Origin: Escherichia phage vB_EcoP-U8
Direction: 5' to 3' (one strand)
DNA length: 40,294 bases
Sequence record: MT862763.1
Position 1 is the stretch's first letter. Each line of letters starts with the position of its first letter. The notes beneath the pieces were generated by a model, which was given only the letters and a program-made list of their open reading frames with translations, searched no databases and had not been told where the DNA came from. Positions 5,220-38,336 of this stretch are shown here, one piece after another. Position numbers and translations under genes: made by a program.

Positions 5220-5593
5220 TACAGTTTGCTCCCAAGTGTTGCTATATCCCAGACGTTCGCTAAGTTACGCATGAATCGTCCGTTAGGTTGACGTACAGTC
5301 CAGCTACCCAGACGTACATATTTGAATTTGTAGACTTTACGCGCTTTGTTGATGTCTCTCACCAGCACGTAGGCGATAAGTCCATAGCCTATGGCTATCA
5401 ATAGTGCGATACTCATAGTCATAAGCCCCATAACAGTTGAGTAAGGACCGGTAGTTTGCAGACTAGAGTAAACATTCCCCACGCTACGAAGCCTGAGATA
5501 GTCCAGATGATTGCAGTGCTCATAGTTAACTCCTATTAATTCAAGTGGTAATCTTTGAGGCCACCTATCAGTCGATGACCTCTCGTCTATCAC
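5219..5593 (-). CDS. hypothetical early protein with predicted transmembrane helix (start uncertain)
   Basis: 124 aa ORF; hydrophobic stretch MSIALLIAIGYGLIAYVLV; a 33-aa alternative-frame ORF with strong SD overlaps near 5430..5531. Confidence 0.3.
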   Translation of the reverse strand: MIDERSSTDRWPQRLPLELIGVNYEHCNHLDYLRLRSVGNVYSSLQTTGPYSTVMGLMTMSIALLIAIGYGLIAYVLVRDINKARKVYKFKYVRLGSWTVRQPNGRFMRNLANVWDIATLGSKL

Positions 5594-5636
5594 TCAGTAC
5601 CCGCCTGTCAGCGTTATGGTCAGGCTGTGATACACG

Positions 5637-6310: not shown

Positions 6311-6380
6311 CTTGTTTATCCTTTAGTTAGTGACTATCAGTCAGGCCGCTATCAGTCTAACGACCTGTAGTTAATCACTC

Positions 6381-6635
6381 TCAGTTAGCGAAATAAGGAG
6401 CTGAGACGCCCACTGTAGGACTCACGGTTATCTGCGAGTCTATCAGGTATGTCTCGTTGTCTATACGCACAGTATCGACGCTGTAGTTGCTGAACTGCTT
6501 GCTTGATACCTTGCGCACTACCACACGGTGACGCGCTCCTGTCATCTCTTTAAGCTGAATCCACGCATAACCTTTAGTGTTCACGAATACTTCATTGCGA
6601 TTAGTGATTGTGCTTAAGTGTTTCATAGTGTCCAT
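6381..6635 (-). CDS. hypothetical first early protein (gene 0.3 position; not Ocr-like)
   Basis: 84 aa ORF; start may be the Met at codon 4 (better SD spacing). Confidence 0.45.
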   Translation of the reverse strand: MDTMKHLSTITNRNEVFVNTKGYAWIQLKEMTGARHRVVVRKVSSKQFSNYSVDTVRIDNETYLIDSQITVSPTVGVSAPYFAN

Positions 6636-6804
6636 CCTTTAAGTTAGTGACTATCAGTCAGGGCCTTCAGATGTAGACTCAAAGGCCCTGTAGTTAGTCG
6701 CTATCGGCGCACATTAAGAGTTTATCCAGATTGTTAAAGAGCATTCCCTTCAGTCAGAGGACTTCAGGTAGACCGTTTCAGTGTCGGTCGTCACCGTTGT
6801 TTCG

Positions 6805-6843: not shown

Positions 6844-7104
6844 CTACTTTCTGTCATCTGCCTGTTGTTCGTATGACTTATCAGGCTGTCTACTTAACCG
6901 GGATGACCAGGCGTCTTCACTATCCGGTTGTTGCCGTGTCGTGTTGACGGAAGCTATTAGGCCATAGTCTGGACCTATAGTCAATAGGTAATTTTAAATA
7001 ATATTGATTAAGCTATCGTCGGCCCCATGGTGTAAGAGGATGTAGTCTTTGACTAACATGTCTTAGACCTTAAGTCTATATCCTTGTGTCTATTAACGTA
7101 GGTC

Positions 7105-7185
7105 TCTGACTGTAGGTAGCGGCATTACCGATGGTCGATGACTGTAGGTAGTTAGACTGTAAGTAGTTAGACTGTAGGTAGTGAC
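7105..7185. repeat. Short tandem/direct repeats (GACTGTAGGTAG x4, last three at 15-bp period) in genome-end region
   Basis: Copies at 7108, 7140, 7155 (one mismatch), 7170; lies between gene 19 and the early promoters, where T7 carries terminal-repeat and CCTAAAG-type repeats. Confidence 0.6.
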
Positions 7186-7618
7186 TCAAGGTCTGATACA
7201 GATAGAGACTCAAAGAAGACCAATAGTCCCTACCTATCGTCTTTCCCTAAGCCATAGCCACAACCTATCGTTGACCTGAAGTCTTGACCATCGGTCTAAC
7301 CTTATGATAGACTGGGGTAGGGCCTTTGGTCTGGACTAAAAGAGGGCCTATGGGGAGACTTGAGGTTCTTGAACTGTGAGATGTGGTCTCAAACTTTTGG
7401 TCCAAAACTCATCGTCACTACTGTAGACCACAGCCACTGTAGGTCAATGACCGTAGGTCAGGCGACACTAGGATAGACCAATAAGTAGGATGACCCTAAG
7501 TGAGCTTCTCTTAAGGTGTTACCTAAAGTCCTTGACTACAGTAGCTAAGGTCAGTAGAGTAGCGTCAGCTATGAACTGACCTTAGGTCTTGCTTTCGTTG
7601 ATTGTTACCATTACGGCG

Positions 7619-8074: not shown

Positions 8075-9838
8075 CTAGTGGAACGTAACGTAGTGCCCTA
8101 GTCCAAGCTCGTCGTCCGTATCGTGAGTTACCCGGACCCCATTGTCCCAGAACTCAGTGTGGATGGACTCGAAGCCTTTCCGTGGGTTCTCCATCTGTTC
8201 CTCCAGCCACTCCTCAGTGACTTCACGTTCTCCTTTGTTGGCATCCTTAGCCATAGACTCAACGAAGAACTGTACACCGATAGCCAGCGCATCAAGTCGG
8301 TCATCGTGTGCCAAGGCCCCACGTTCACGAGAGATACGGGTCATCTGATAGAAGAGAGAGTAGATAGGGTTACGAACACCATCCTTGTCAGAGGCTGTCT
8401 GGTAGTCTTGGACGATAGCAGCAGCGTTGACGATAAGTCGGTGAGACCCCATGATAGGCTCCAGAACGTCACAGATGCGGAGTTCTTTCTGACCCTTACT
8501 CTTCACTTCAGTTACAGCCGCAGGATGGATACGGGCCGCTACAGGCTTGAATAACTCAAGGTACATACCATCACCGAAGTTACCCTCAATGACGTATTCG
8601 TTGACCTTCCACTTACGACCAATCTTAGCCAAGGCTTCCAGAGTAGAGTCTTCATAACCACCACGCATACCGCCTACTTCCATAGCGAAGATGTAGCCGT
8701 TGAGCTGATACAGTACCGCATAGCCAGTTTCATCCTTACCACGACCACTAGGGTCAATGACCAGAATCTTCTGGGTGTACGAGCTGAAGGCAGAACCTAC
8801 AGTCTGATACGTGTGGTATGAGTCACCCATGAGTCCAACGTTAGGGACGTCCTCACGCTTGTTCTGAGGGTTAGGCAACCATTGGTAGACCATTGGACTA
8901 GACGCTGGGTCCAAGTCCGCTACGATAAGGTCACGGAGCTTCAGAGGGTACTTCTCAGCATCACTCAGGTTCGGGTTAAGCATGAACTGTAGAGCGAAGC
9001 CAGCTTTACCATAGGACAGCTCACGTTCCTTCAGGTCCGTATCATCGAATCGTACCTCATCGGTCGGACGCCAGTAGAAGGACTCAGGGTCCTCTTCCAG
9101 TTCTGCCTGAAGCATAGGAGCCAGACGGTCGCCGTAAGACTGCCAGTCCTTCCTGTCGCGTGGGTAACGAGCAGGCCAGATAGTAGTGGTGTACCCACGA
9201 CCTTCCAACTCACGGTACAGGGTCATCTCGTTCTGAGGAGTACCCAGATAAATGATTGTGCCTCCCGGCTTCAGGATAGCGTCGAACTCTTTCACAAGCT
9301 CTGACAGACGGTCTCGTGCAGCCTGAGTCGCAGAGTTATTAGGAACCTCCACGTCATCTGCAATCAGGATGTCAGCACGACTACCAGTCAACTGACCAGT
9401 GATACCAACAGACTTAACCGAAGGTGAGTGGTCTGGCTTGGCTGGCCCAACGTCGAAGCTAATAACAGCATCTCGCTGTCCCTGCTTAGGTTTGAGTTCC
9501 TGAAGCTGAGGCATGAGGTCGATGATTCGCTTGATGAATATGGAGTTAGCATCGGCTCGTTCCTTTGAGGCCGACACAATCATGAACTTCAAGTCTGGGT
9601 TGTTCCATAGTTTCCAGACCACGAATGCACACGTAATGAATGACTTCCCGATACCACGGAACGCCTGAAGGATGAAACGCCTGTTGTCCCCAGCCGATAG
9701 TTTCTTCGCCATGTCAATCTGACAGCGAGTCGGGACTGGGAGCGACAGAGCTTTCCACAGGACGAACAGGAAGAACACGAAGTCGGCCTTCATACGTGCC
9801 GTCATAAGCGCCTGACGCGCCGCTAAGTCTTGACTCAA
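8075..9838 (-). CDS. Terminase large subunit (T7 gp19-like DNA maturase B)
   Basis: 587 aa; collinear with T7 gp19 as recalled ([18 protein letters not shown] Walker A region, [19 protein letters not shown]). Confidence 0.95.
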
Positions 9839-10284
9839 GGTTTCACCTCCTTCTCTTGCTGCATGGCTCTCACGGTCTTCTGGAGGGCCTTAATCCATTC
9901 GTCACCTTTCAGTCCGATGGCGATAAGACGCTTAGCATCTCGTTCGTCAAGTTCGGCGTAACCATCAATGACGCATCGACCGTCAGTCTGGACTGTTCCA
10001 CTGGTGGGTTCGACGCGGATGCGCATCCGCTTGTTATCGCGGTTAAGGTCAGCAATAATCCTATCAGTAGAGCCTTCCAGCGCGGACATCTTGTCTTGCC
10101 ACTCGGCTGACACTTTGTCGATTTCACCTTGGACAGCAGCCCGTTGATTCTCTCGTGCCTCAAGTTTCGTGATGTACTCATCGTTTACTTTCGCCTCCCA
10201 CTTATTGTCTGCCACCCAGTAGCCTGAACAGAACAGGAGTCCTGCCACCAGCCAAGGGACGGCCTGTCGTAAAAGTTTGAGCAT
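9835..10284 (-). CDS. Rz-like i-spanin (T7 gp18.5-like)
   Basis: Matches T7 gp18.5 ([22 protein letters not shown]); start set at the Met preceded by GAGGAGGG rather than the ORF-track start at 10299. Confidence 0.8.
9909..10181 (-). CDS. Rz1-like o-spanin lipoprotein embedded in Rz (+1 frame)
   Basis: Lipobox ITSGC; matches T7 gp18.7 as recalled ([10 protein letters not shown]..., [13 protein letters not shown]). Confidence 0.75.
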   Translation of the reverse strand: MSTSRNLRHERINGLLSKVKSTKCQPSGKTRCPRWKALLIGLLLTLTAITSGCASASNPPVEQSRLTVDASLMVTPNLTNEMLSVLSPSD

Positions 10285-10302
10285 AGTTGCCCTCCTCATT
10301 TC

Positions 10303-10674
10303 TCAGAATCGACGTACAAGCGTCTTCTCTAGGTATGAAACAGCCCGCTGGACACTAGATGTAGTATCTCCCAGTGCGCCAATTGCTGCATTGCACTTGC
10401 GGCATAAAACCCCTCTAATCACCCCAGTGGAATGACAGTGGTCAATACACGCAGAGTCTGTATCTCCTTTCTTCCCACCTACTTTAAGCGGAGTCTTGCA
10501 AATCTCGCATGAGCTTCCCACCGAGTGCATCAGGTCCTCGAACTGTTCAAGCGTGAGACCATATAGGCTCTTTATCTGCGAAATGCGCTTAGTCCTCTTT
10601 CTTCGTTCCTCCCGTTCCTCTCGTAATTTACGAGCAGCTTGAACGTTAGCCTTTATAACATCTTCCGATACCAT
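10303..10674 (-). CDS. Endonuclease VII-family protein (putative homing endonuclease) between gene 18 and 18.5
   Basis: CEICK...IDHCHSTGVIRGVLCRKCN, the Cys/His pattern of T4 endo VII-type proteins; SD AGGAGGTGGT before ATG. Confidence 0.75.
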   Translation of the reverse strand: MVSEDVIKANVQAARKLREEREERRKRTKRISQIKSLYGLTLEQFEDLMHSVGSSCEICKTPLKVGGKKGDTDSACIDHCHSTGVIRGVLCRKCNAAIGALGDTTSSVQRAVSYLEKTLVRRF

Positions 10675-10688
10675 ACCACCTCCTAGTG

Positions 10689-10726
10689 TTAATCATAAAG
10701 GCCACCAATAGATGACCTTGAGTCTA
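10689..10726 (-). promoter_or_regulatory. Conserved leader stem-loop element, copy B (candidate RNase III site, R18.5 position)
   Basis: TAATCATAAAGGCCAC-N-ATGACCTTGAGTCTA immediately upstream of the endo VII-like gene RBS. Confidence 0.4.
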
Positions 10727-10730
10727 ACAC

Positions 10731-10994
10731 TTACTGGACACCATACCCAGTGTCATTATCCTCGGTCGCTGATAGCACCTTGTCGTACTCTCTGTTCAGC
10801 GCCTCCATGTCTGCCAACTGCTTCTCGTCCACCGACACCTTGCTTAACACAAAGTTGTGACGGGCCAGCAGCTTCTCGATGGCGTTGTAGAGCTGGGGCG
10901 AACGCTTAGAGTCATCCCGCAGGTCTTGCAGCATTAGTCGAGCACGTTCGGTGTCCAGCATTAACAGGAACTTCTCTAAGTCCATCTGCGTCAT
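10731..10994 (-). CDS. Terminase small subunit (T7 gp18-like)
   Basis: 87 aa; FLLMLDTERARLML...RSPQLYNAIEKLL matches T7 gp18 as recalled. Confidence 0.85.
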   Translation of the reverse strand: MTQMDLEKFLLMLDTERARLMLQDLRDDSKRSPQLYNAIEKLLARHNFVLSKVSVDEKQLADMEALNREYDKVLSATEDNDTGYGVQ

Positions 10995-11185
10995 GTCTTA
11001 CCTCCGCTCTTAATCGTCTTGTAAATTAGGACGCCAATCTGCACCACGGTGTACGCGATAGCAGCGACGTAGAACCATTCGTTGAGCGTTAGCCCAAAGA
11101 AGAACCGACTGGCACCATCAGCCGCAGCGGTCCCGACGATAGGCGAGGCTTTGAGGACCTCATTCTTGAAGTCAAACTCAATCAT
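10991..11185 (-). CDS. Holin (T7 gp17.5-like)
   Basis: 64 aa; GLTLNEWFYVAAIAYTVVQIG nearly identical to T7 gp17.5 as recalled. Confidence 0.85.
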   Translation of the reverse strand: MIEFDFKNEVLKASPIVGTAAADGASRFFFGLTLNEWFYVAAIAYTVVQIGVLIYKTIKSGGKT

Positions 11186-11252: not shown

Positions 11253-14108
11253 TTAGCCCCTACCTCCACAACCTTCAAGTTTATCCAGTCGTGTTTCAAT
11301 CCTGTCGCAGCGACGTCGCTGATAAGCGGCCTCCAACCAGAAACACTGATCTGGACGAATGCCCCAGCGATTACCGGCAGCTCTAGTAAGTAGGGTATTA
11401 CCGGTTTCCACTTGACGGGTAACTTCGGTATCGACACCATCAATATTAACAGTGATAACCTCATCAACGAACTCAGGTTCATACTCATCTTCCCACTCGT
11501 CATAGCAAAGCAGACCGAAGGTAGTACCATCCAAACCATGCTTTATGAAGGTATCACGAACTTGCTGGGCAATTACCCCGAAATGCCAACGAGCAGAATC
11601 TTCACCTTTAGCCGCAATAGAAGATAACCACTTGTACGTGATTATCTGCACGTCGCCCCAGGCATCAAGGATATCATCCGAGATTTCAAACGGGTAAGTT
11701 TTTTCACGGGAGTCGGACGTATTAATAGTACCAATCGCTGCGAAGACTTGAGCCACACGTAATGCTGGGTTGCCTAAATTGTAAGCGTTATCTGTGTATG
11801 GACGTAGAGATGTATTATCTATACGCCATCGAATAGTGCCACCTACGGTTTCGGGCGACGGATTAGTAGCAAAACTAATAGACGTAGCACTCTTAAATAC
11901 CGACGATCCACCACCTAAGATAAGAGAATGTGCAGATGCGGAACTTTGTTGATCGAGGACAAGAATCTGTTCTGATTCGGTTAAAGTTTTATTACCGAAA
12001 GCCCTAGCTGCAATTCGACCTTGGGTTAATGCACCAGAGTCAGTATTATTCAGGGTTAAGCGATAAGTCTCTAAACCGATAGCCCCAGTAATTACGGTAT
12101 AACCGGAAGTGTCATAAGTTACACGCACAGTCTTACGGGTAGTTGGCCCAGTCTGATCTATAGAGAAGCTCTGATTATTCAGGTTGCTGATATGAAGCTC
12201 TATCCCAATTGGGTAGGCAACTCCATCCAGATCTGTAAGACCGGTGCTTGACGTATAGATAGTAACTGCCTTCTGCCCAGACAGCCGCATAAAGTCCAAT
12301 ACTGCTGACATTGAAGTCATGGCACTACCGGTCAGAGGGTTATAGAGTACGTCGCCTGCGAGGATTCGTGGATAAACCCCAGAAGCCATCCGAATGGTAT
12401 CGTAACCTGGAGATACCGTTGTCACCGCAGAAAAATCCAAGTCTGGGGAGTTGGAATACTCTTTGGTAATTAGGATCCCATGCGTATACGCATTCGAGGC
12501 GGTTCGGTTGTTATAGATCCATAAGGTGAACACCTCACCATTTGAATAGCAGATGCCCTCATTCTCTATACGAGAAGTCGTTAAGCCTTTAGCGTCCAGA
12601 ACACTAATAAAACCAGTAGGGGGCATTACTGCCTCCACCATTTTGTGCCCGTCAGTGCTGAATGCTTTTACTCCCTGATAATTAGTAGGTGCTTCCACAG
12701 TTGTTCCTGTAATGTAAACACCACCGAATGCCATAATCAGAACACCCGGAGCTAAACAGATTGCTTGTCGCTTAGTTTGAAGCGGCCCGTAATCAGTAGT
12801 AGTTGTCGTGATGTATCCAGCATCATACGGAGAAAATTCCGTGAAACCAGTTAATGCAAATGCGGAGTTGAAGTACGCAATAACATTACGTTGACGGTTA
12901 ATGCCCAACGCTGGGATGGCCTGTTCAACTGCCCACATTCCATTATGGAAGGAGAACTGGTTATACAGACCCACTTGGTGTAACGCTGTATAGCTAATCG
13001 TGGTGCCATAGGTCACTGCTGAGATATCAAACTCAGCTAAGTTACCATCGTAGGATCCAAGGAATAACTTAAGTGAACCATAGTAATTGGTTACGATAAT
13101 CCCCTCGGATACCGCAGAACCATTTACCCCTGTGCCTCCATTATTAGTCTGGAGATACCCTAAGTATTCACCTTCACCTGAGTAAACTACAACGAAACGT
13201 TCCGTAGCTGCGTTGTTACTTGGGCCATATGCAATGTAGATATTGCCATCATCCCCGATACAGAATGACCCCGGATAAATAAACGTCCAGTCAGGGTGCG
13301 CCGCCAGAATAGCATCGTAATCTGGGAATAGTAATGGCAGGTCAAAACTAATTTCTTTTTTATCTGCGCCAGAATTAGCCCAACGGCTGCTCAGGACTGT
13401 AGACAGTGTTTCCCCGTTTTTTGTGCCGATTAAATTTGTTCCGGTTGGTTTTGCAATATCGGCGCGCAATGACGCATCACCAACACTAACCCACGCACCC
13501 AAACCAACGCCGCCAGACGTTTCAGGAGTTGAACCAACAGGCACTGTTTTTGGCAGTCCACCATCCCAGCGGTAATACTCACCATCAGCTTCCCATAGCA
13601 GGACCTCGTTCCATGTTGTAATGTTGATGCCTTTCTCGAAGGAGCGACGGGTAATATAGCCGATTCGACCAGATGCCTGGATATTATCAGCGATTCGTCG
13701 TGCTTCGTCCTCGCTATCCTTAGCGTTGCCAGCAGAGCTACCAGCAGCATCTGCATATTCCTTCACTAAGTCAACCGTTTGGTCTCGACCTTCTTCTGCA
13801 ATATGGATAGCCTGAAGCTCTGAATTTGTCAGGTCACTAGCTGTCAACACTGAGCCATTCCTGAAATCTACCACTAAGTCAGTTCCAGTCTGACGGTGAA
13901 TACGAACTATGTCGAAACCTGATTGGTCAACCAACATCTCAATCATCGTTGGATTAAGGAATCGGTAATCTCGACCAACTTCCAGTACACGGTTCAGGGT
14001 AGGGTTAGAGCTATTCACCAGCGTAACAACAACAAACGTTCTGGATAGGTAGTCGAACTCAATCCTGTACTGAGTGTTTCCTGAAGGGAATTGTGTAATC
14101 GTGGACAT
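11253..14108 (-). CDS. Tail fiber/tailspike (gp17-like N-terminal adapter, divergent distal domain, C-terminal chaperone-like domain)
   Basis: 951 aa vs 553 in T7; first ~150 aa match T7 gp17 N-terminus (FVVVTL, LVVDFRNGSVL); C-terminus contains NTSDSREK...WHFGVIAQQV resembling intramolecular chaperone (peptidase S74-like) domains. Confidence 0.9.
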   Translation of the reverse strand: MSTITQFPSGNTQYRIEFDYLSRTFVVVTLVNSSNPTLNRVLEVGRDYRFLNPTMIEMLVDQSGFDIVRIHRQTGTDLVVDFRNGSVLTASDLTNSELQAIHIAEEGRDQTVDLVKEYADAAGSSAGNAKDSEDEARRIADNIQASGRIGYITRRSFEKGINITTWNEVLLWEADGEYYRWDGGLPKTVPVGSTPETSGGVGLGAWVSVGDASLRADIAKPTGTNLIGTKNGETLSTVLSSRWANSGADKKEISFDLPLLFPDYDAILAAHPDWTFIYPGSFCIGDDGNIYIAYGPSNNAATERFVVVYSGEGEYLGYLQTNNGGTGVNGSAVSEGIIVTNYYGSLKLFLGSYDGNLAEFDISAVTYGTTISYTALHQVGLYNQFSFHNGMWAVEQAIPALGINRQRNVIAYFNSAFALTGFTEFSPYDAGYITTTTTDYGPLQTKRQAICLAPGVLIMAFGGVYITGTTVEAPTNYQGVKAFSTDGHKMVEAVMPPTGFISVLDAKGLTTSRIENEGICYSNGEVFTLWIYNNRTASNAYTHGILITKEYSNSPDLDFSAVTTVSPGYDTIRMASGVYPRILAGDVLYNPLTGSAMTSMSAVLDFMRLSGQKAVTIYTSSTGLTDLDGVAYPIGIELHISNLNNQSFSIDQTGPTTRKTVRVTYDTSGYTVITGAIGLETYRLTLNNTDSGALTQGRIAARAFGNKTLTESEQILVLDQQSSASAHSLILGGGSSVFKSATSISFATNPSPETVGGTIRWRIDNTSLRPYTDNAYNLGNPALRVAQVFAAIGTINTSDSREKTYPFEISDDILDAWGDVQIITYKWLSSIAAKGEDSARWHFGVIAQQVRDTFIKHGLDGTTFGLLCYDEWEDEYEPEFVDEVITVNIDGVDTEVTRQVETGNTLLTRAAGNRWGIRPDQCFWLEAAYQRRRCDRIETRLDKLEGCGGRG

Positions 14109-14154: not shown

Positions 14155-14177
14155 GTTTCCTATAGTGATAGTTTAGT
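14155..14177 (-). promoter_or_regulatory. Phage RNA polymerase promoter (phi17 position)
   Basis: CCTATAGTGATAGTTTAG at 14159..14176; overlaps gene 16 stop codon; 50 nt upstream of gene 17 ATG. Confidence 0.75.
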
Positions 14178-17100
14178 CCTTGATGTGGATGCCTTGCTCC
14201 TCAAACGTTCCAAGCAGCAGCTTCTGGGTAATGGGGTCGTTCGGAACCAGTTCACGGAACGTATTATACATCCCGGTCATGTAGTCACGCTCGTTGACAC
14301 GAGTATCAGCCTTGAGGTAGCCAGCCAAGTTGTAAGCCGAAGCGCCAACGTTAGCAGCATATCCGAAAGCTGGAACCTGCTCCAAGAAGTTACCAACAAC
14401 ATTCATCACAGGGTCACTTGTAGCTGCACCATACGCGATGGCACGCTCAGGCTTCTCTGTAGGAGAACGAGGTAGGATAGAAGAACGGAGCATCTTAGTG
14501 TCCTCATATCCAGCGATGCCTCCCAGAATGTTAGCTACCCCAAGTGGGCCACCAAGATGTGAACTACGGGACAGGGCCGCATAGCCAATCATCGTTGGGT
14601 CCAGAGCTTGCTTAAGGTAGTCACGGTCTCGACCATCCTGCATAGCATAAGCCTTGACATGCGCCTGAGCCATGTAGTAGATACCAGCCAGACCCATAGA
14701 CATCACGGTCGACAGTGCAGCGTCAATCGCTCTGTTGTTCTTCGTGGCGTTATAGAAGGTTCGCATGGTTCTCCCATTGATAGACTTGATGACGAAGTTC
14801 TTAAACTGAAGGACAGTCTTAGCGAGAGGACCATAAGCCTTGGCGTCCATGTTTGACAGCTTATGAGGCCGGAGTAACGTCTCGTCAGCGATGGTGTCAC
14901 CCATACGCCACAGGTCCATAGCCCTTGGGTCCTGACTAAACGCCTTCTTATCCTTGATGGTGTACTTCCCGTCTGGACCACGAGTCACTGACTCACGGAT
15001 TAGGGACTTAATACCCTTCCACTGCTCGTCAGAGATACCAGCGGTCTTCAGCCAGCGGTCATCAAACTTACGCTTACTACCAGTCAGACTATGCTCCACG
15101 ATGTCAGACAGGAAGCCTTGACGTCCAGCATCTAACAGGTAGTTTGTCGTACCGTTGAGGACTTTAGTGAACGGAGAGCGTACTGCAAGTTCACCAGTGT
15201 AATACTTGGCAGTCCCCAGAGCTGTGGCTGTACCACTACCTAGGTCACTGTAAGATCTCAGACGGTCAATGACATCCTGTTTAGACGGACGGATTGAGTC
15301 ATCCAGTTCCTTACCGAAGATAACATTGTGCAGGTCCTTAATCTCTGAGGCCCCTACCTTCTTGTTACGGAAGGCTAGGTCACGGAACATAGGGACTCCA
15401 TGTAGCAATGCACGAACGTTACCACGAGCTAGCATACCACCAATCTCCGTTAAGTTCTGAACACCCATGTAGGCATTCTTAGCGAAGAACGATAGGTCTG
15501 TCATTGTGCGCATCACGGTAGCGAAGGCAGCATCGTCAGCACCATCACGTCGGGCACGACCAGTGAGAATCTTCAAGGTGTCACGTAAGGTCGAGACCTC
15601 ACCTTTCAACTTGCCGTCATCACCAGCCTTGTTCATCATGGTCTCAACCAAGTCCTTCATATCCTTCGTGGTTTTGCCTGTACCAGCCATGATAGCAATA
15701 TCGCCATTAACTCGACGGTTGTAGGCCGGGACAATCTTGTCCATGTCCCACTCACGCAGGTTGTTGACACTGAAGGTCTGACCGTTAGGCAGGACGATTG
15801 ACATATCACTATCGAACAGGTTACGAGCCTCAAGGAAGCTGTTGTTCTCCAGACCAACCAGGCCGTTGATGTTCTCTTCCATTACGGATGAACGTTCGAA
15901 CTGCTCGGTGTGAGAGATACCATAAGCCTTATCGTTTGCGTACTTATCTACCGCAGCCGCAAGTCCTTCTGGAGTCAACGTAGGGTCAGCCTCTAAGAGT
16001 GCCTCGTCCACACGTTTCTTGACCTCAGGTCGAGACGCATAGCTGGTCAACCATGACTTCTTGATGGCCTCCTGTAGTGCCTCTGGACTTCCAAGCTCCT
16101 TGATGTACAGCTCCTTCATCTGTTTGCTATACACATGCGGGACGTAGGTTCCCTTGAAGCGGCTACCCGGAAAGATAGACTGAGCGTCTGGACGACCAAA
16201 CATCGCTGGGTTCTCCATCATCTCACGCTTGGCGTCGAACTGGTTCTTCAGTAGGTCATAGACTTTCAGTTCTCCAGGAGTCAGTTCAGCCTTCAGGTTT
16301 CCGCTACCGTCTTCGATAGCCATAGACACACGCTGGTAGATGTCCTGACGGAATGCGCCAGAGTCTCGCCAGAATGCAGTCTGGAAGTACGGGTCCTTTA
16401 GTGCCTCAGTAACCGCATCGTCGATGTCGTTGTAGAACCGATGGTCCACAGAACGAAGTCTCTCGAACACGTCTGACGCAGTTGTCCCGATTTTACCTGA
16501 GGCCCCAGACTGCATACCAGTAGGTGAACGCACTAAGTCAGCAGCTACTCCACGAATCTCAGGGTTCTCAGACCGAAGCAGCTTCAGGCCAATCTCGGTA
16601 AGTCCACCAAGGTTCACACCAGCAGCGGCACGTTCCGGCTCAATCACTTCGTCAAAGACTTGACGTGTCTTAGGGTTCAGAGGGTTCTCACCAATCAGGA
16701 TTGAACCGTCTTCCAGTCGTACACTTCCCGGCTCATTCGGAACGTCAGCGAACTTAACGCCTTGATGACTAAAGGTCTGCTCACCTTCCTGAATAGGTAG
16801 ACGAGATAGGTCCTGACCATCAACGTTACGAGCAGTCTCACGAGCTTCCAGACGTGTAGCTGGACCAGCGAACTCATTAGTGTTTCGACCTAAGGCTCTG
16901 CCTAATCCATCAGCGATAGCAGTCATACCTCCACCGAAGAGAGCACCACCAAGGATAGCCTCAGCCACATGAGCATCCCCACCAGCCACTGATGTACGGG
17001 CCATCTCTGACACACCAGCAAGTGCTCCAGATTGAGCAGCCACGGTGAACATCTTATTGACCAGCTTAGCACCTTTACCAACCTGTCCAGCAATAGGAAC

Positions 17101-18060
17101 GTATGTCAGAGGGTCCACGCCAGCACCAATAACACCAGCAGCTAACTGAGCGCCAGTCCCAGCCTTGGCCTTCTCTTGGTCCAACTTCTGGTTCTCAATC
17201 GCCAAGTTAATAAGCTCAGTCAGGTTCTGAGGGGAGCCACCAGTAATGACTCCGTAATACTGAGGCAGAACCCCAGCGTTACGAATCTGGTCCAGCTCCT
17301 CACGAGACCACTTATGGTTGTTCCATCGCGTCGGGTTGAACACATCGCCAATGACATCCAGTGAGTCCTCAGTCTGACCAGCTCTGATAGCCACGCCGAC
17401 CATAGAGTTCTTCACTTCAGCTTCTGTAGCCGCACCGAAACCGAACCACGTAGAGCGATCCTCTCGTTCCTGCATGGTCTCGCCAGTAGCCTTATAGAAC
17501 ATCTCACCGAACGATTCGTTGGGAGCTTCAGGTGCTTGACCCTCAATGTTCATACCAGCAGCGGTCGGAAGGTTCTCACCCAGAGCTACTTTAGGTTTAT
17601 CCTTGAGTCCTTCCGTGAGTGCGTCAAATACGTTAGCGCTTACTGGTGGAGTCTTTGGGCTAATGCCATTGAGTGCTCGTGCGACTCCCTTCTGATAGAC
17701 TTCAGGGTCGTACCGGGAGCCTGTCTCATGGAAGCTGATAGCTTGAGCCAGAGAAGACAGGGTGTCAGGGTCCGATAGGTCGAGACTCTGGGTCGCCGGG
17801 ATGCCCGTAGCCGAAGCCACTGACTGAATGTACGCCTGAGTGTCGTTCTCGTTCGGAGGTGCCCAACGGTTGATAATCTTCTCGATAGAGTCATAACCTT
17901 GGCGACCGTAGCTTTGAAGGTTTTTAGCTAAGGCTCGGACCCCAGATTCAGGACTATCGAAGATAACGAACGCACCATCATCACCTATAGCACCTTCCCA
18001 TTGGTCTTTGGACTTACGGAGGTTCCCGGGGTTTGAATTCCTTACTCCACGTGTCGCCAT
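14173..18060 (-). CDS. Internal virion protein D (gp16-like) with non-canonical N-terminal domain
   Basis: 1295 aa; long collinear match to T7 gp16 from about residue 250 onward (ENPAMFG, GTYVPHVY, AYNRRVNGDIAIMG); N-terminal ~120 aa does not match the T7 transglycosylase motif. Confidence 0.9.
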   Translation of the reverse strand: MATRGVRNSNPGNLRKSKDQWEGAIGDDGAFVIFDSPESGVRALAKNLQSYGRQGYDSIEKIINRWAPPNENDTQAYIQSVASATGIPATQSLDLSDPDTLSSLAQAISFHETGSRYDPEVYQKGVARALNGISPKTPPVSANVFDALTEGLKDKPKVALGENLPTAAGMNIEGQAPEAPNESFGEMFYKATGETMQEREDRSTWFGFGAATEAEVKNSMVGVAIRAGQTEDSLDVIGDVFNPTRWNNHKWSREELDQIRNAGVLPQYYGVITGGSPQNLTELINLAIENQKLDQEKAKAGTGAQLAAGVIGAGVDPLTYVPIAGQVGKGAKLVNKMFTVAAQSGALAGVSEMARTSVAGGDAHVAEAILGGALFGGGMTAIADGLGRALGRNTNEFAGPATRLEARETARNVDGQDLSRLPIQEGEQTFSHQGVKFADVPNEPGSVRLEDGSILIGENPLNPKTRQVFDEVIEPERAAAGVNLGGLTEIGLKLLRSENPEIRGVAADLVRSPTGMQSGASGKIGTTASDVFERLRSVDHRFYNDIDDAVTEALKDPYFQTAFWRDSGAFRQDIYQRVSMAIEDGSGNLKAELTPGELKVYDLLKNQFDAKREMMENPAMFGRPDAQSIFPGSRFKGTYVPHVYSKQMKELYIKELGSPEALQEAIKKSWLTSYASRPEVKKRVDEALLEADPTLTPEGLAAAVDKYANDKAYGISHTEQFERSSVMEENINGLVGLENNSFLEARNLFDSDMSIVLPNGQTFSVNNLREWDMDKIVPAYNRRVNGDIAIMAGTGKTTKDMKDLVETMMNKAGDDGKLKGEVSTLRDTLKILTGRARRDGADDAAFATVMRTMTDLSFFAKNAYMGVQNLTEIGGMLARGNVRALLHGVPMFRDLAFRNKKVGASEIKDLHNVIFGKELDDSIRPSKQDVIDRLRSYSDLGSGTATALGTAKYYTGELAVRSPFTKVLNGTTNYLLDAGRQGFLSDIVEHSLTGSKRKFDDRWLKTAGISDEQWKGIKSLIRESVTRGPDGKYTIKDKKAFSQDPRAMDLWRMGDTIADETLLRPHKLSNMDAKAYGPLAKTVLQFKNFVIKSINGRTMRTFYNATKNNRAIDAALSTVMSMGLAGIYYMAQAHVKAYAMQDGRDRDYLKQALDPTMIGYAALSRSSHLGGPLGVANILGGIAGYEDTKMLRSSILPRSPTEKPERAIAYGAATSDPVMNVVGNFLEQVPAFGYAANVGASAYNLAGYLKADTRVNERDYMTGMYNTFRELVPNDPITQKLLLGTFEEQGIHIKD

Positions 18061-18491
18061 GTCTTTCTCCTCAAGATATTTCTAATAGAAACCGTACTCA
18101 CTCCATAGCGTTCAGCCAAGAGTGAAACCTTTAGGTCGCTGGACCTTATATCACGCACACTTTCCTCAGTGAGCTTAGACGAGCCTACGAAGCATCCTAA
18201 CGCTTGGCGACCTCTAGTCACCTTATCCTTTATGTTATCAGCTTGGGTGCCAACTTCAAGGTGGCTTGGGTCTATACAGGACGGGTTGTCGCACTTATGG
18301 CGAACAACGTACCCATCCGGTATAGGACCGTTAGCAAGCTCGTAAGCAAGTCTATGCGCTCTGTATTTGACCCTGTTGACCATTATCCTTCCATATCCTT
18401 CTCCGTCTAAGTGGCCTGTAAATCGGATACAGCCAGACTCTTCAGCTACTGACAGTTCTGCCAGTCTCTCACTGGCTGTCCCGTTCTTCAT
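18042..18491 (-). CDS. HNH homing endonuclease-like protein between gene 15 and 16
   Basis: GYVVRHKCDNPSCIDPSHLEVGTQADN HNH motif; 149 aa; not present at this position in T7. Confidence 0.8.
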   Translation of the reverse strand: MKNGTASERLAELSVAEESGCIRFTGHLDGEGYGRIMVNRVKYRAHRLAYELANGPIPDGYVVRHKCDNPSCIDPSHLEVGTQADNIKDKVTRGRQALGCFVGSSKLTEESVRDIRSSDLKVSLLAERYGVSTVSIRNILRRKTWRHVE

Positions 18492-21378: not shown

Positions 21379-21765
21379 CTAATCCCCCTTCCGGCTTGTA
21401 GCCAGATAGTCAGCAGCCTTACCATCGAAATCTTCGCATTTAGAGTGGTAGTTTCTACGGGTCAGCTTTAGGTTGCAGGTATGACATAGGATTCCTCGGA
21501 CTTTCCCGGAGGTGTGACAGTGGTCAACGCATACTCCTCGGCTAGTTCCTAATGTCTTGCAGATTGCGCAGACCCCGCCCTGCTCTTTTAGGATGGAATC
21601 ATATTCTATCTGCGTAATGTGATACGTCTCGTATCCCTTGTTCTTGTGGCTCCGTCCATTATGACACAGCTTACAGGCAGAGCGTACACCACACTTAGAG
21701 TCTTTCCGTGTAGAGAACGCTTCTAGTGGCTTTTCAATTTTACAGACGGTACAGACCTTAGTCAC
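21379..21765 (-). CDS. Endonuclease VII-family protein (putative homing endonuclease) between gene 13 and 14
   Basis: GGVCAICK...[19 protein letters not shown]; GTG start with SD AAGGAGG; start overlaps gp13 stop. Confidence 0.78.
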
Positions 21766-28019: not shown

Positions 28020-28042
28020 TGTTCCTATAGTGATAGTTTAGG
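28020..28042 (-). promoter_or_regulatory. Phage RNA polymerase promoter (phi9 position)
   Basis: CCTATAGTGATAGTTTAGG at 28024..28042; overlaps portal stop codon. Confidence 0.75.
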
Positions 28043-29606
28043 CTTGAGCCATGTCCTCACCAGCTCCCTGACCTACAGCAGCACCCATGTTAGCACCAGC
28101 AGCACTAGCACCTTGGACAACTGCCTGTTGTGACGACTGCTCAGCCATGCGCTGAATCTTCTCGTCTTGCGTCAGGAGTAGGCCAGCGGTGTCGATACCC
28201 AGAGCGTTCAGGAGTCGCAGCTTAAGGGTCGGCAAATTGATGTCCGGGTCCTGAGATAGCGGCTGAAGACCAGTCATCATGTTAACCGCCTGAGTCAGCT
28301 TCTCCAAGTCCTGACCACGGCCCAGAGCTTCCAGACCAGTTGAGACAGTAGGCTCTACCGCTTCTTTCGGAAGGTCAGGAATCATGCCAGCAGACTGAAG
28401 TTGGTTCATCAGCACACGGACGATAGGTAACTGAAGCTCTTGTGACTGTACTGAGTACACGCCACCTAAGGTCGCCTCCAGTTCGCCAGCAACATAACGA
28501 ATCTCTTCAGCAGTGACACGCTCTGCATTACGCTGAACAGCACTATTAAGAAGGAAGGCCCAGCCTAAACGTTGCTCGATAGCGTCAGCCACCGACTTGG
28601 CAATCGTAAAGTCCTGACCTTTCGTCAGTTGCAGGAAGTTGATGTCCTCAACGCGACCAGCCACGAACTCACCTGTAGCCGCCTTGTTCAGACGACGAGG
28701 TTGCGTGATACCGTTCGGGTTAACGAGGCCCACCACCTTGGAGGCTACCTTAGCCATTTTGGTGATAGCTTCTGTAATCGTCTCCAGCGAGTTAAGGTCT
28801 CCCAGATACTCCTCGCAGTAAGAACGACCGTAGTCTTCACCGTCCAGTCGAACCATTCGTACCGGGATGTATGGACATGCGGTCAGAGGATATGAACCAT
28901 CGGTCCCTGTTACCTCAATTCCTTCCACTTCCTCGTAGCGCAGATACTCGTCGTCCTGACGGTAGATGTGCGTATACACTTCCAGCTCGGTGTCAGGCTC
29001 ATAGTCGTCTGCATTGAGTTGAGACTTCACGTCTTCCGGTAGAGCACTGAAAGCTACCTTGTCGAGAGTCACAATCTGCAAGATGTTACCGAACGCATCA
29101 CGTTGAACAACGTAAGACACTAAGCGGTACATCCGCATCGGACTGTAAGTACCCTGTTCAGGCTCTGGAATGTAAAGCAGACAGTTACCGGAGACGATAA
29201 GCTGCTTCAGAGCTTCGAACAATGGCACACGGAAACTGTTAGTCTCCATGTAGGCCATCAACACACGCTCGACCATAGCAAGCCCTTCGTCAACACGAGC
29301 AGCAGCCTCTGAGTCCTGACTCAAGGTCTTGGCCTCATATTCGGAGACTGTCAGTCGCATCCACGGTGACTGAGGGAATAACGCCAACATCAGCTTTGCA
29401 GCCAAGTTGTTCAAGCAGCGAGCACCTACAGCTTGCCACGGAGTGGTATATTCAGTAGACGAGTTGTCTGATTCCTTAGGAAACAGTGACGGGATAGTGA
29501 CAGCAGCACAGTTCTGTGCGCGGGTCTCGTAAGGCTGTCGTCCGTTCTTCAATCTATCATAAACTGACTTAGCGCCTTCAGCAGCGAACCCTTCACGTTC
29601 AGCCAT
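28038..29606 (-). CDS. Portal (head-tail connector) protein gp8-like
   Basis: 522 aa; matches T7 gp8 as recalled (YETRAQNCA, ACPYIPVRMVRLDGEDYGRSY, GLVNPNGITQPRRL). Confidence 0.96.
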   Translation of the reverse strand: MAEREGFAAEGAKSVYDRLKNGRQPYETRAQNCAAVTIPSLFPKESDNSSTEYTTPWQAVGARCLNNLAAKLMLALFPQSPWMRLTVSEYEAKTLSQDSEAAARVDEGLAMVERVLMAYMETNSFRVPLFEALKQLIVSGNCLLYIPEPEQGTYSPMRMYRLVSYVVQRDAFGNILQIVTLDKVAFSALPEDVKSQLNADDYEPDTELEVYTHIYRQDDEYLRYEEVEGIEVTGTDGSYPLTACPYIPVRMVRLDGEDYGRSYCEEYLGDLNSLETITEAITKMAKVASKVVGLVNPNGITQPRRLNKAATGEFVAGRVEDINFLQLTKGQDFTIAKSVADAIEQRLGWAFLLNSAVQRNAERVTAEEIRYVAGELEATLGGVYSVQSQELQLPIVRVLMNQLQSAGMIPDLPKEAVEPTVSTGLEALGRGQDLEKLTQAVNMMTGLQPLSQDPDINLPTLKLRLLNALGIDTAGLLLTQDEKIQRMAEQSSQQAVVQGASAAGANMGAAVGQGAGEDMAQA

Positions 29607-32080: not shown

Positions 32081-32370
32081 TGCTTGACCTCGAATCGCAG
32101 GTTAGATACTCCGAACTGGTCATAACCAAAGTCGTCTACCAGCTCCTCCTTGATGGTCTTCTTGAGGGCAATTTCAAGGGCAGACTCAGGGCCTGACTCG
32201 ATTGCGGTTTTGACCAGAGCCAACTGAAGACCATCCAGCTTCTCACCCTCAGCGTAGGCTTTAGTCATCTCAGCCAGTTGGCGACACATGGTATCTTCTT
32301 CCTTTGAGTTAACAACCATCTTCAGATCAAAACTCACACGAATACGTTTAGTAATAGCCATTAGTGACAC
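32077..32370 (-). CDS. gp5.5-like protein (H-NS-binding protein family in T7)
   Basis: ATG at 32368-32370 with SD AAGAAGGAG; MAITKRIRVSFDL...EVKQ resembles T7 gp5.5 as recalled. Confidence 0.8.
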   Translation of the reverse strand: MSLMAITKRIRVSFDLKMVVNSKEEDTMCRQLAEMTKAYAEGEKLDGLQLALVKTAIESGPESALEIALKKTIKEELVDDFGYDQFGVSNLRFEVKQ

Positions 32371-32786
32371 TCCTTCTTAACAAGTTTGCGCTCACGGTTC
32401 GTCTTAATGACGTGTTCGCGTTTTGGAATACACTGTAGATGCTCTATGTTGCAGCACCCACGGTTCAAGCACAAATGGTCTATTTCGTAGCCATTTGGTA
32501 TAGGTCCGCGCCTCTGCTCCCACACCCATCGGTGGAACATGAAGGCGAACTTGTTGCCCTTCCTGTAGCTTCCCATGGAGTACCGGAAGTACCCATCTTG
32601 GTTCCTCTTGTGGGACACGCAGACGATACATCCGGTAGGCATGGTGTGGAAGCGTAGGGTCTGGGTTCGAGGGTCAATGACACTCTTTCCACGTTGGTCC
32701 AATCTTACCCTCCGTATCAAGTTCACACTTGAAGTTATAGAAGCGTCCGACCTCGCGCATCGCCTCTTGAGCAATACGGACGACAT
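32361..32786 (-). CDS. HNH homing endonuclease-like protein overlapping the 3' end of the DNA polymerase gene
   Basis: HRWVWEQRRGPIPNGYEIDHLCLNRGCCNIEHLQ HNH motif; ATG at 32786 has SD GGAG, overlapping pol by 113 nt in another frame; an internal Met at 32642 has no SD. Confidence 0.75.
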   Translation of the reverse strand: MSSVLLKRRCARSDASITSSVNLIRRVRLDQRGKSVIDPRTQTLRFHTMPTGCIVCVSHKRNQDGYFRYSMGSYRKGNKFAFMFHRWVWEQRRGPIPNGYEIDHLCLNRGCCNIEHLQCIPKREHVIKTNRERKLVKKECH

Positions 32787-34845: not shown

Positions 34846-34864
34846 GGTTAATCCTCCGTTTAGT

Positions 34865-34905
34865 CTAATCATAAAGGCCACTCTATGTGAATGACCTTTA
34901 GTCTA
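34865..34905 (-). promoter_or_regulatory. Conserved leader stem-loop element, copy C (candidate RNase III site upstream of gene 5)
   Basis: CTAATCATAAAGGCCAC-N-ATGACCTTTAGTCTA immediately upstream of pol RBS. Confidence 0.4.
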
Positions 34906-34908
34906 GAC

Positions 34909-35072
34909 CTAGAAGTCTGTACGCAAGAAGTGGTACATAAACTTCCGGTTAGCTTTCTTCCATGCCTTAGAGTCGAACCTCTGGTCTCCCAGAATGTTGG
35001 ACAGGAAGGTTGCTTCATCGCTCCACCATTTGTACATGAACCGATGGTAGCGAGCTTTAAGTTTCTTGAACA

Positions 35073-36842: not shown

Positions 36843-36921
36843 TGGCGTCTCCACGGGGATTCGAACCCTAATCGCAATAGGCCATCACGACCCGCCGCTC
36901 TACCGTTTGAGCTATGGAGAC
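36843..36921 (-). tRNA. tRNA-like gene (anticodon arm atypical; possible anticodon CGU)
   Basis: RC: GTCTCCA TA GCTC AAACGGTA GAGC ... TAGGG TTCGAAT CCCCG TGGAGAC G CCA; perfect 7-bp acceptor stem, U8, canonical D-arm, T-loop and CCA; anticodon stem imperfect and region 3 nt longer than standard. Confidence 0.6.
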
Positions 36922-37670: not shown

Positions 37671-37887
37671 CGTACACCACCAGCTCTACAGCTACGAGGT
37701 TCAGATGACGTTGGAAGCGGTTAGCATCCGTGGTGTGCATCTGGAGCAACTTATGGTTGAAGACGTGAGAGTTACTAATCTTCACGTACACTTCACCCGG
37801 CTTACCGTGAACGATAAACGCATAGCCTACCGGGATTTTATCAATGGTCAGACGCTTACGAACGACCTTAACTTCTTGAGTCATCAC
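37660..37887 (-). CDS. hypothetical protein between gene 3 and 3.5
   Basis: 75 aa ORF tightly packed between endonuclease I and amidase. Confidence 0.45.
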   Translation of the reverse strand: MMTQEVKVVRKRLTIDKIPVGYAFIVHGKPGEVYVKISNSHVFNHKLLQMHTTDANRFQRHLNLVAVELVVYDGE

Positions 37888-38336
37888 TTAACTCCTTTCT
37901 TCTTGGGGATGAGTATACCTGAAGGCAGACGTACAGTCGCCTCTCGCAGCCACTCAACCGGGATGAACTTATCGGCATACTTATAGCCGTTCTTTTCGCA
38001 CCATGCGCCATACGTGGTCGGAGACCCTTTGTATAGCTTGGAGCGTGAACTTGAGAACACGAACCGGATGTCTAACTCTGGGTGCTGTTCTCGTACCAGA
38101 AGGTGCTTCTTACGGTCATCACTATCGAAGATACCTTTGGTCTCCACGATGATACCGTTGGGAAGGATAAAATCTGGTGTGTACTTGTGGTCGGAAGCCG
38201 GAATCACATAGTTGATATAATGGCTTTCGTACTCCGCTTTGACGCCGTTCTGTTCCAGCCACTGCTGGTTCTTGGCTTCAAGTCCAGAGCGGTAGGCACC
38301 CACAGAGTGCCCCCGTTTTGCAGACCATTGGGCCAT
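37884..38336 (-). CDS. Endonuclease I (gp3-like Holliday junction resolvase)
   Basis: 150 aa; YTPDFILPNGIIVETKG, DDRKKHLLVREQHPELDIRFVFSSS match T7 gp3 as recalled. Confidence 0.95.
   Translation of the reverse strand: MAQWSAKRGHSVGAYRSGLEAKNQQWLEQNGVKAEYESHYINYVIPASDHKYTPDFILPNGIIVETKGIFDSDDRKKHLLVREQHPELDIRFVFSSSRSKLYKGSPTTYGAWCEKNGYKYADKFIPVEWLREATVRLPSGILIPKKKGVK

Follow-up and report, generated by a model that had tools for sequence, protein, structure and literature searches.

A probable free-standing homing endonuclease gene of the DHHRN kind in the gene 18/18.5 spacer of Escherichia phage vB_EcoP-U8

Free-standing homing endonucleases are already known and are common in T7-like phages. 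The DHHRN class of homing endonucleases was established by Fang et al. (2018) with F-CphI of cyanophage S-PM2, and the same work placed the endonuclease VII-motif proteins of those podoviruses that encode endonuclease I in the endonuclease clade and not in the resolvase clade, predicting that they do not act as resolvases (PMC6083498). We report here the analysis of a gene of this kind in Escherichia phage vB_EcoP-U8 (MT862763.1), the whole 40,294-nucleotide (nt) sequence of which is referred to below as the window. The gene, at 10303-10674 on the minus strand, is an open frame of 123 amino acids with an ATG start and a TGA stop at 10303-10305, and it lies between gene 18, which encodes the small terminase subunit, and gene 18.5, which encodes the Rz i-spanin with Rz1 embedded in it. 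From comparison of the sequences we conclude that it probably represents a free-standing homing endonuclease gene of the DHHRN kind, belonging to a lineage that is tied to the 18/18.5 spacer and sits after a hairpin of the T7 R18.5 type. The general picture of such genes is unchanged by this finding; what the locus would add is a site-specific lineage found across genera, the docking of that lineage beside an RNA-processing site, and a clean record of recent spread in the sequences.

F-CphI resembles the window's gene in being a free-standing phage gene between conserved genes, in carrying its motif towards the C-terminus and in belonging to a phage that has another resolvase. It differs in that its cleavage site and activity have been shown experimentally and in that it works with a group I intron in psbA, whereas the gene in the window has no intron, lies in an intergenic spacer beside an RNA-processing hairpin and is likened to F-CphI by motif and context. 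Three phage genes occupy the same slot at the same distance from Rz, namely gene 18.2 of Kvp1 (YP_002308424), Ro103_48 of Ro103C3lw and ORF37 of PcaP1EGY, the products of which are 51-55%, 98% and 42-48% identical to that of the window, respectively. They have been annotated only as hypothetical protein, as in Ro103C3lw, or as endonuclease VII, and the present work proposes a function for a gene so labelled in public records. In the Kvp1 paper 18.2 figures merely among the regions that phage Berlin lacks (PMC2579914). In Berlinvirus and Pektosvirus the protein has 111 amino acids and is without 12 residues of the N-terminal region.

Amongst the enzymes of solved structure, Hpy99I (PDB 3fc3 and 3gox) is the best relative by sequence, and the alignment with it takes in the entire catalytic domain with its C-terminal YL.K helix. 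Hpy99I, however, has a partner methylase and recognises DNA through a large N-terminal domain, where the protein of the window is without a methylase and has only a long basic helix at its N-terminus. T4 endonuclease VII (gp49) shares with the window's protein its Pfam family and its zinc and active-site residues and is the best structural match, but it is a 157-residue, domain-swapped, junction-resolving dimer, the C-terminal half of which has no counterpart here.

The comparisons assign the product of the open reading frame (ORF) to the endonuclease VII family, with its DHHRN, beta-beta-alpha-metal active site. The match to Pfam PF02945 (Endonuclease_7) has an expectation value (E) of 3.1e-20 and 72.3 bits, for a score cutoff of 23.6 bits, and covers residues 33-117 of the protein and positions 3-82 of the 82 in the hidden Markov model (HMM); endonuclease VII families of PHROG are also matched, the best at E 7e-31. 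A first-pass annotation of this DNA, made from the letters alone, had described a 123-residue endonuclease VII-like ORF between gene 18 and the Rz/Rz1 cassette and had proposed an HMM search as a check; the strong PF02945 match and those in PHROG bear out the description and place the protein within the family, and the motifs that it quoted, CEICK and IDHCHSTGVIRGVLCRKCN, are both present.

When the family profile is aligned residue by residue with proteins of the PDB, where Hpy99I is found at E 1.1e-10 and T4 endonuclease VII at E 2.1e-7, the proposed catalytic residues D78, H79, H81, R87 and N95 and the proposed zinc ligands C56, C59, C91 and C94 fall opposite their counterparts in both enzymes, in the pattern C-x2-C, DH-x-H, R, C-x2-C-N. 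The DHHRN set of T4 endonuclease VII is D40, H41, H43, R54 and N62, with zinc ligands C23, C26, C58 and C61 (PMC6083498). All of these catalytic and zinc residues are intact in the window and are unchanged in homologues of 49-60% identity. The YLE motif at residues 114-116 aligns with VDYLE of T4 endonuclease VII and IEYLKK of Hpy99I, implying that the gene's own sequence extends at least to K117. In an AlphaFold model (predicted local distance difference test, pLDDT, of 78) a long basic N-terminal helix is followed by a beta-hairpin and helix and by a C-terminal helix, and the beta-beta-alpha-metal element is formed by strands 74-79 and 86-91 and then helix 92-100. The best Foldseek match to this model in the PDB is T4 endonuclease VII (probability 0.99), followed by Cap5 HNH and Hpy99I, all with low template-modelling scores of 0.31-0.38.

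A word-indexed protein search returned 6 homologues. Of the 95,785 cluster representatives that an exhaustive search returned at E <=0.001, no more than 4 reached E <=1e-30, from which it appears that the site-specific lineage is small. Its alleles are either near-identical, with 2 differences, or saturated, with ~40% nucleotide divergence.

The gene is an optional occupant of a fixed slot. Amongst the 235 GenBank phage records matching the region, a near-identical gene is present in a single one, Ro103C3lw, and the remaining records align as two pieces that flank the gene; none of 23 Kayfunavirus-like loci from IMG/VR carries it. Pisces, which lacks the gene, has flanks 97% identical to those of the window. 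T7 has nothing between genes 18 and 18.5, its spacer being without an ORF, as had been claimed in the first-pass annotation, and the comparison of this spacer among relatives, which had also been proposed there, finds a gene that is far from universal. Homologues in the same slot are found in Kvp1 (Berlinvirus), PcaP1EGY (Pektosvirus), Ro103C3lw (Kayfunavirus) and the metagenome contigs L007-L012, so that use of the slot spans at least these three genera; L007 and L012 hold older alleles of 60% protein identity. Every homologue of 42-60% identity with readable context is positioned after an R18.5-type hairpin and 18 nt before Rz, and the distance from the gene 18 stop to the slot gene is 56-72 nt in the homologues. 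More distant members of the family in T7-like phages occupy other places, such as the region ahead of the DNA polymerase gene or that separating genes 13 and 14. These comparisons identify the endonuclease as a small lineage tied to a single genomic site, the 18/18.5 spacer.

Alignments with Pisces, T7 and 22 IMG/VR loci delimit a stretch of ~362 nt (10324-10685, minus strand) that is absent from relatives with an empty site. This stretch holds the gene's own ribosome-binding site (RBS) and codons 1-117, and it takes the place of a variable segment of 13-15 nt in the empty site. The last six codons (TLVRRF; 10306-10323, minus strand) are, together with the stop codon, common to the empty sites, as the motif ACGCT.GTACGTnnATCTGA, which is found 18 nt upstream of the Rz ATG in carriers and gene-less alleles alike, T7 included. 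The order in gene-less alleles is gene 18 stop, hairpin, variable segment, CTACGTGAAATCTGA, Rz RBS and ATG; in carriers it is gene 18 stop, hairpin, TAGGAGG..ATG, the ORF as far as ..YLEK, the ACGCT motif, RBS and ATG. The Rz start that defines these distances is the ATG at 10284, 18 nt past the stop of the endonuclease ORF, which gives a protein of 149 amino acids, has the Shine-Dalgarno sequence GAGGAGG and agrees with the annotations of Ro103C3lw and Pisces. A start at the ATG at 10299, given in a mechanical ORF list, was rejected since the RBS and the annotation of relatives favour 10284.

The RBS of the endonuclease gene, read from the sequence as TAGGAGGTGGT at 10675-10685 (minus strand), is strong. 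Its Shine-Dalgarno sequence AGGAGG, at 10679-10684, is separated from the ATG by the four bases TGGT. The TAGGAGG..ATG arrangement is also found in Kvp1 and in contigs L008-L010 and L012, and L007 and PcaP1EGY have different purine-rich sequences at the same point. The resemblance of this RBS to CTAGAGAAGG near the 3' end led to consideration of the empty sites as remnants of deletion. That idea was rejected because the likeness is weak beyond the last six codons, and the homology of the empty-site segment between T7 and Kayfunavirus also argues against it.

Two further observations concern the spacer. In one Kayfunavirus locus (L024:1764-2246; IMGVR_UViG_3300045988_000029) it holds another insertion, a 160-residue ORF of unknown function, which lies before the hairpin and overlaps the gene 18 stop, the empty-site sequence past the hairpin being intact. 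In the empty sites of L017-L039 and L002 the RNase III hairpin is directly followed by another, smaller one, at a point corresponding to ~10306-10330 of the window. The 5' arm of this second hairpin is the 13-15 nt variable segment, which changes in step with the 3' arm (for example CGAGA/TCTCG vs CGTAG/CTACG) and is displaced by the endonuclease gene. Its single-sequence folds range from -5.5 to -12.2 kcal/mol with mixed significance, that of T7 being weak, and RNAalifold gave no consensus structure on a MAFFT alignment of the empty sites.

The hairpin that precedes the gene, 45 nt at 10686-10730 (minus strand), is a T7-type RNase III processing hairpin and the positional homologue of T7 R18.5. 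Its lower stem is of 7 bp and its upper stem of 9 bp, and an asymmetric internal loop separates the two. The structure holds across 17 sequences, in which 95.6% of cells are paired and 7 pairs are changed on both sides, such that compensatory changes support both helices; none of 500 shuffles reaches the observed pairing, and controls in which the structure was slid along the sequence give 22-52% pairing. Gene-less relatives and T7 have kept the hairpin at the corresponding position, and these comparisons identify it as the phage's native T7-type RNase III site and not as an import with the endonuclease gene. The first-pass annotation had described it as a conserved structured leader element; its conservation and structure are real, with covariation between the arms, but as a leader it is the native processing site and stands at empty sites too.

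In T7 R1.1, R4.7 and R18.5, as in this hairpin, an internal loop parts two stems, and the conserved arms ACUCAAGG...GGYCUUUAUG are shared. R18.5 has been named as a strong T7 RNase III site (bioRxiv 10.1101/106799), and our identification of the window's hairpin with it rests on sequence, on position, on that one citing preprint and on the 1983 work of Dunn and Studier. The T7 records NC_001604 and V01146 list no RNase III sites, and when the whole window was scanned with Rfam the sole hit was a tRNA, no family matching the stem-loop. Dunn and Studier reportedly placed the cleavage of R18.5 at T7 nucleotide 36856, which we take to fall at CUUUAU^GG on the T7 sequence. The two hairpins share their position and are alike in sequence and fold, and cleavage in that of the window, as a prediction only, would be at CUUUAU^GAUU, near position 10695, on the 3' side of the internal loop.

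A covariance model of the hairpin finds it in the window at 10682-10733 (71.9 bits) and finds two further strong copies, one at 34858-34912 (63.6 bits), upstream of the DNA polymerase gene at roughly the T7 R4.7 position, and one at 1496-1552 (61.9 bits), downstream of the RNA polymerase gene with a phage promoter on either side. T7 R1.1 likewise lies between the promoters phi1.1A and phi1.1B. Weaker copies lie between early genes at 5541-5596 (36.8 bits) and 6326-6381 (34.2 bits), with a possible one at 6643-6704 (14.7 bits); these probably correspond to the early RNase III sites of T7. All copies are on the coding, minus strand and their layout agrees with that of the T7 R sites. The count of three copies given in the first-pass annotation is right for the strong ones and omits the two or three weaker ones.

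Evidence for movement of the gene comes from two sources. The closest background to the window is Escherichia phage vB_EcoP-22664BS1 (22664BS1; species Kayfunavirus LM33P1), a gene-less phage with ~95-100% identity over most of the window, the exceptions by sliding identity being the tailspike and a few short stretches. Sliding identity and mismatch counts in bins of 100 nt reveal a recombinant patch, resembling Ro103C3lw and Pisces, that extends at minimum over 9800-10900 (minus strand) and is centred on the endonuclease gene. Its upstream edge can be placed only between 10,900 and 11,200, giving a size of roughly 1.1-1.6 kb. Within the patch there are 0-4 mismatches per 100 nt against Ro103C3lw and Pisces and 11-37 against 22664BS1, and outside it the relation is reversed.

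The second source is metagenomic. An allele that differs from that of the window by one residue, H50D, is found on at least 7 metagenome contigs with its frame open and its catalytic and zinc residues intact, and at least three different tailspike genes stand alongside it. In L055, L057 and L058 the region corresponding to 10303-10736, which runs from the gene 18 stop to the ORF stop, has 1-2 mismatches (99-100% identity), whereas the flanks are 5-22% divergent; going outwards, mismatches begin at 10737 and 10302 in L055 and at 10737 and 10278 in L058. Conservation far above that of essential neighbours, in a gene that can be dispensed with, is the signature of recent horizontal spread, and both results, the foreign patch and the identity island, point to recent horizontal movement. 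The island takes in the hairpin, which explains why the upper stem is the short one of 9 bp in all four Kayfunavirus carriers, as compared to 11-14 bp in most gene-less relatives; the 9-bp stem is found in 1 of 23 gene-less loci. On these comparisons a particular short-stem variant of the hairpin travels with the endonuclease gene. The Ro103C3lw copy (L001:2053-2424, Ro103_48) differs from that of the window by H50D and C59Y, with no silent differences. C59Y removes a zinc ligand, a loss that is as expected of an element that may degenerate once it has spread.

The gene is free-standing and optional, it is found at the same insertion site and it is more similar between carriers than its flanks are, which are the features by which a homing gene would be recognised. 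The first-pass annotation had suggested a selfish element, and membership of the endonuclease VII family, rarity among close relatives and behaviour like that of such an element all lend this support. The gene would be transcribed on late T7-RNA-polymerase transcripts, and RNase III would cut the hairpin on the 3' side of its internal loop, ~20 nt before the endonuclease ATG, making the endonuclease gene the first cistron of the processed 18.5-19 message, with its own AGGAGG site for translation. Where two phages infect together, a homing enzyme would cut or nick the genome of a gene-less relative at or near the empty 18/18.5 junction, carriers being immune because their junction is split by ~362 nt. 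Repair of the break by phage recombination on the carrier template would then copy the hairpin-plus-gene unit with a short, variable flank, homology being provided by the Rz leader and by the arms of the hairpin, which are strongly conserved.

Several points weigh against this interpretation. Homing is something that we infer from patterns in sequence only. Apart from the short-stem hairpin variant, no flank polymorphism was found that consistently separates carriers from non-carriers. Rz is hypervariable in the genus, exchange has also affected the neighbouring tailspike, and T7-like phages are mosaic anyway, so ordinary recombination could have made the patch in the window, and ordinary mosaicism in this variable region of Rz and tailspike could account for part of the pattern. 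Between the window and Kvp1, furthermore, the identity of the endonuclease (51-55%) is close to that of gene 18 (48%) and Rz (46%), and a divergence between genera that is like that of the neighbours fits long vertical residence with many losses just as well as repeated homing.

This last comparison, in which conservation between genera equals that of the neighbouring genes, would also suit an active nuclease that does not home but aids the phage in competition, by cutting co-infecting relatives or host DNA (marker exclusion), and that spreads by ordinary recombination because it is useful. Such a role would account for the intact catalytic site and for the maintenance of diverged copies at one site, and the authors of the Hafnia phage Ca work have speculated along similar lines (PMC8861465). 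Great rarity among close relatives would nevertheless be odd for a generally useful gene, and the island in L055 and L058 ends within a few bases of the unit, a better fit to break-initiated copying than to random crossovers, and we regard this explanation as distinctly unlikely. In T4, exclusion and homing are two faces of one mechanism, so that it partly overlaps with homing. It is highly improbable that the protein is a second resolvase, acting on Holliday junctions or branched DNA as T4 endonuclease VII does, because the phage has endonuclease I already, the C-terminal half through which the T4 enzyme dimerises is missing (the alignment covers T4 residues 7-86 of 157) and the protein is nearer by sequence to the sequence-specific Hpy99I than to T4 endonuclease VII, even though it is a member of Pfam Endonuclease_7 with T4 endonuclease VII as its best structural match. 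The gene is moreover optional, and the motif stands towards the C-terminus, where members of the endonuclease clade have it (PMC6083498).

The position of the gene, between genes 18 and 19, raises the question of whether it encodes an HNH-type terminase accessory like HK97 gp74, lying between terminase genes and aiding DNA packaging; HNH proteins beside terminase genes are known packaging components, according to Kala et al. (2014) as cited in PMC8861465. We consider this very unlikely since nearly all relatives do without the gene: T7 and >99% of close relatives package their DNA in its absence, gene-less Pisces has nearly identical flanks, and T7-type terminases have a nuclease domain of their own (PF22530 on the neighbouring gene). 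The partnership of HNH proteins with terminases is known from cos-type phages, and this also counts against it. As to a decaying remnant, the enzyme of which is no longer active, the C59Y change in Ro103C3lw and the fact that both differences of that copy from the window alter amino acids are the features that would speak for it. The window and the allele present on the metagenome contigs retain every catalytic and zinc residue and an open frame, however, and the ribosome-binding site is strong, and we give a remnant very little credence. A homing endonuclease gene is the explanation that we prefer.

The association of this proposed homing lineage with hairpins invites an extension. The enzyme may recognise DNA that encodes RNA hairpins, through inverted repeats, those in the RNase III site and in the displaced second hairpin, and partly by structure in the manner of T4 endonuclease VII, docking over the long term at an RNA-processing site. 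We consider this unlikely; were it true, the site would supply first-cistron expression, conserved repair arms and a target that the phage cannot easily mutate, and the homing gene would parasitise a regulatory RNA element and be maintained on it across at least three genera.

Carriers and non-carriers that are nearly identical to each other, Ro103C3lw or the phage of the window as against Pisces or 22664BS1, are ready test material for homing, and five natural empty-site variants are available for mapping the target specificity of a new DHHRN enzyme. Elements of this kind would shift markers around the terminase-lysis region in mixed infections, which is relevant to therapeutic phage cocktails and to phage engineering.

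The window contains three other candidate endonuclease genes of related types, all on the minus strand. A second Endonuclease_7 gene, of the gene 13.5 type, lies between internal virion protein genes at 21379-21765 (PF02945, E 1.7e-16), and its product is 36% identical to the 18.2-type protein over the core. One HNH_3 gene lies between genes 15 and 16 at 18042-18491 (PF13392, E 2.9e-17), its counterpart being annotated as a predicted homing endonuclease in CR44b, and another lies just downstream of the DNA polymerase gene at 32361-32786 (PF13392, E 2.5e-18). Records that cover at least 80% of the locus number 1 of 235 for the gene at 10303-10674, 8 of 221 for 21379-21765, 16 of 197 for 18042-18491 and 31 of 244 for 32361-32786; these counts are lower bounds, as megablast misses diverged alleles. 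By these alignments all four genes are optional among relatives. The phage's own resolvase, T7 endonuclease I, is encoded at 37884-38336 (PF05367, E 3e-81). The count of four endonuclease-type genes, two Endonuclease_7 and two HNH_3, had been given correctly in the first-pass annotation, but its description of the genome as unusually dense in them was overstated: the number is at the high end and not exceptional, other T7-like phages being similar, with three or four endonuclease VII-like matches per genome. Hafnia phage Ca has been described with several homing endonuclease genes (PMC8861465), as has CR44b.

The window is a complete, circularly permuted T7-like genome of the genus Kayfunavirus, in which every gene is on the minus strand; that it is circularly permuted follows from clusters of short repeats, typical of genome ends, at ~7090-7470. 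In the direction of transcription the tailspike gene (11253-14108) is followed by the holin gene (10991-11185), by gene 18 as the upstream neighbour of the endonuclease gene (10731-10994; PF11123, E 4.6e-12; phrog_1351, E 1.4e-34), by the endonuclease gene itself, by gene 18.5 as its downstream neighbour (9835-10284; phrog_1327, E 8.5e-57) and by the large terminase gene (8075-9838), all on the minus strand.

The C-terminal two-thirds of the tailspike (~11253-13250, minus strand) has no match in Ro103C3lw, 22664BS1 or Pisces, and by this comparison it is an exchanged receptor-binding module that adjoins the recombinant patch bearing the endonuclease gene. A phage promoter is present in at least 10 copies in the window, with a minus-strand consensus of about CCTAAACTATCACTATAGGA; examples are at 1547-1573, 14158-14184 and 28023-28049. 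Finally, a gene resembling that of tRNA-Thr(CGU), in which the CCA end is encoded, is found at 36843-36921 (minus strand), immediately upstream of the primase/helicase gene. It was detected by ARAGORN, its score with the Rfam tRNA family is 36.7 bits, and in relatives its label varies between tRNA-Thr, tRNA-Pseudo and tRNA-OTHER.

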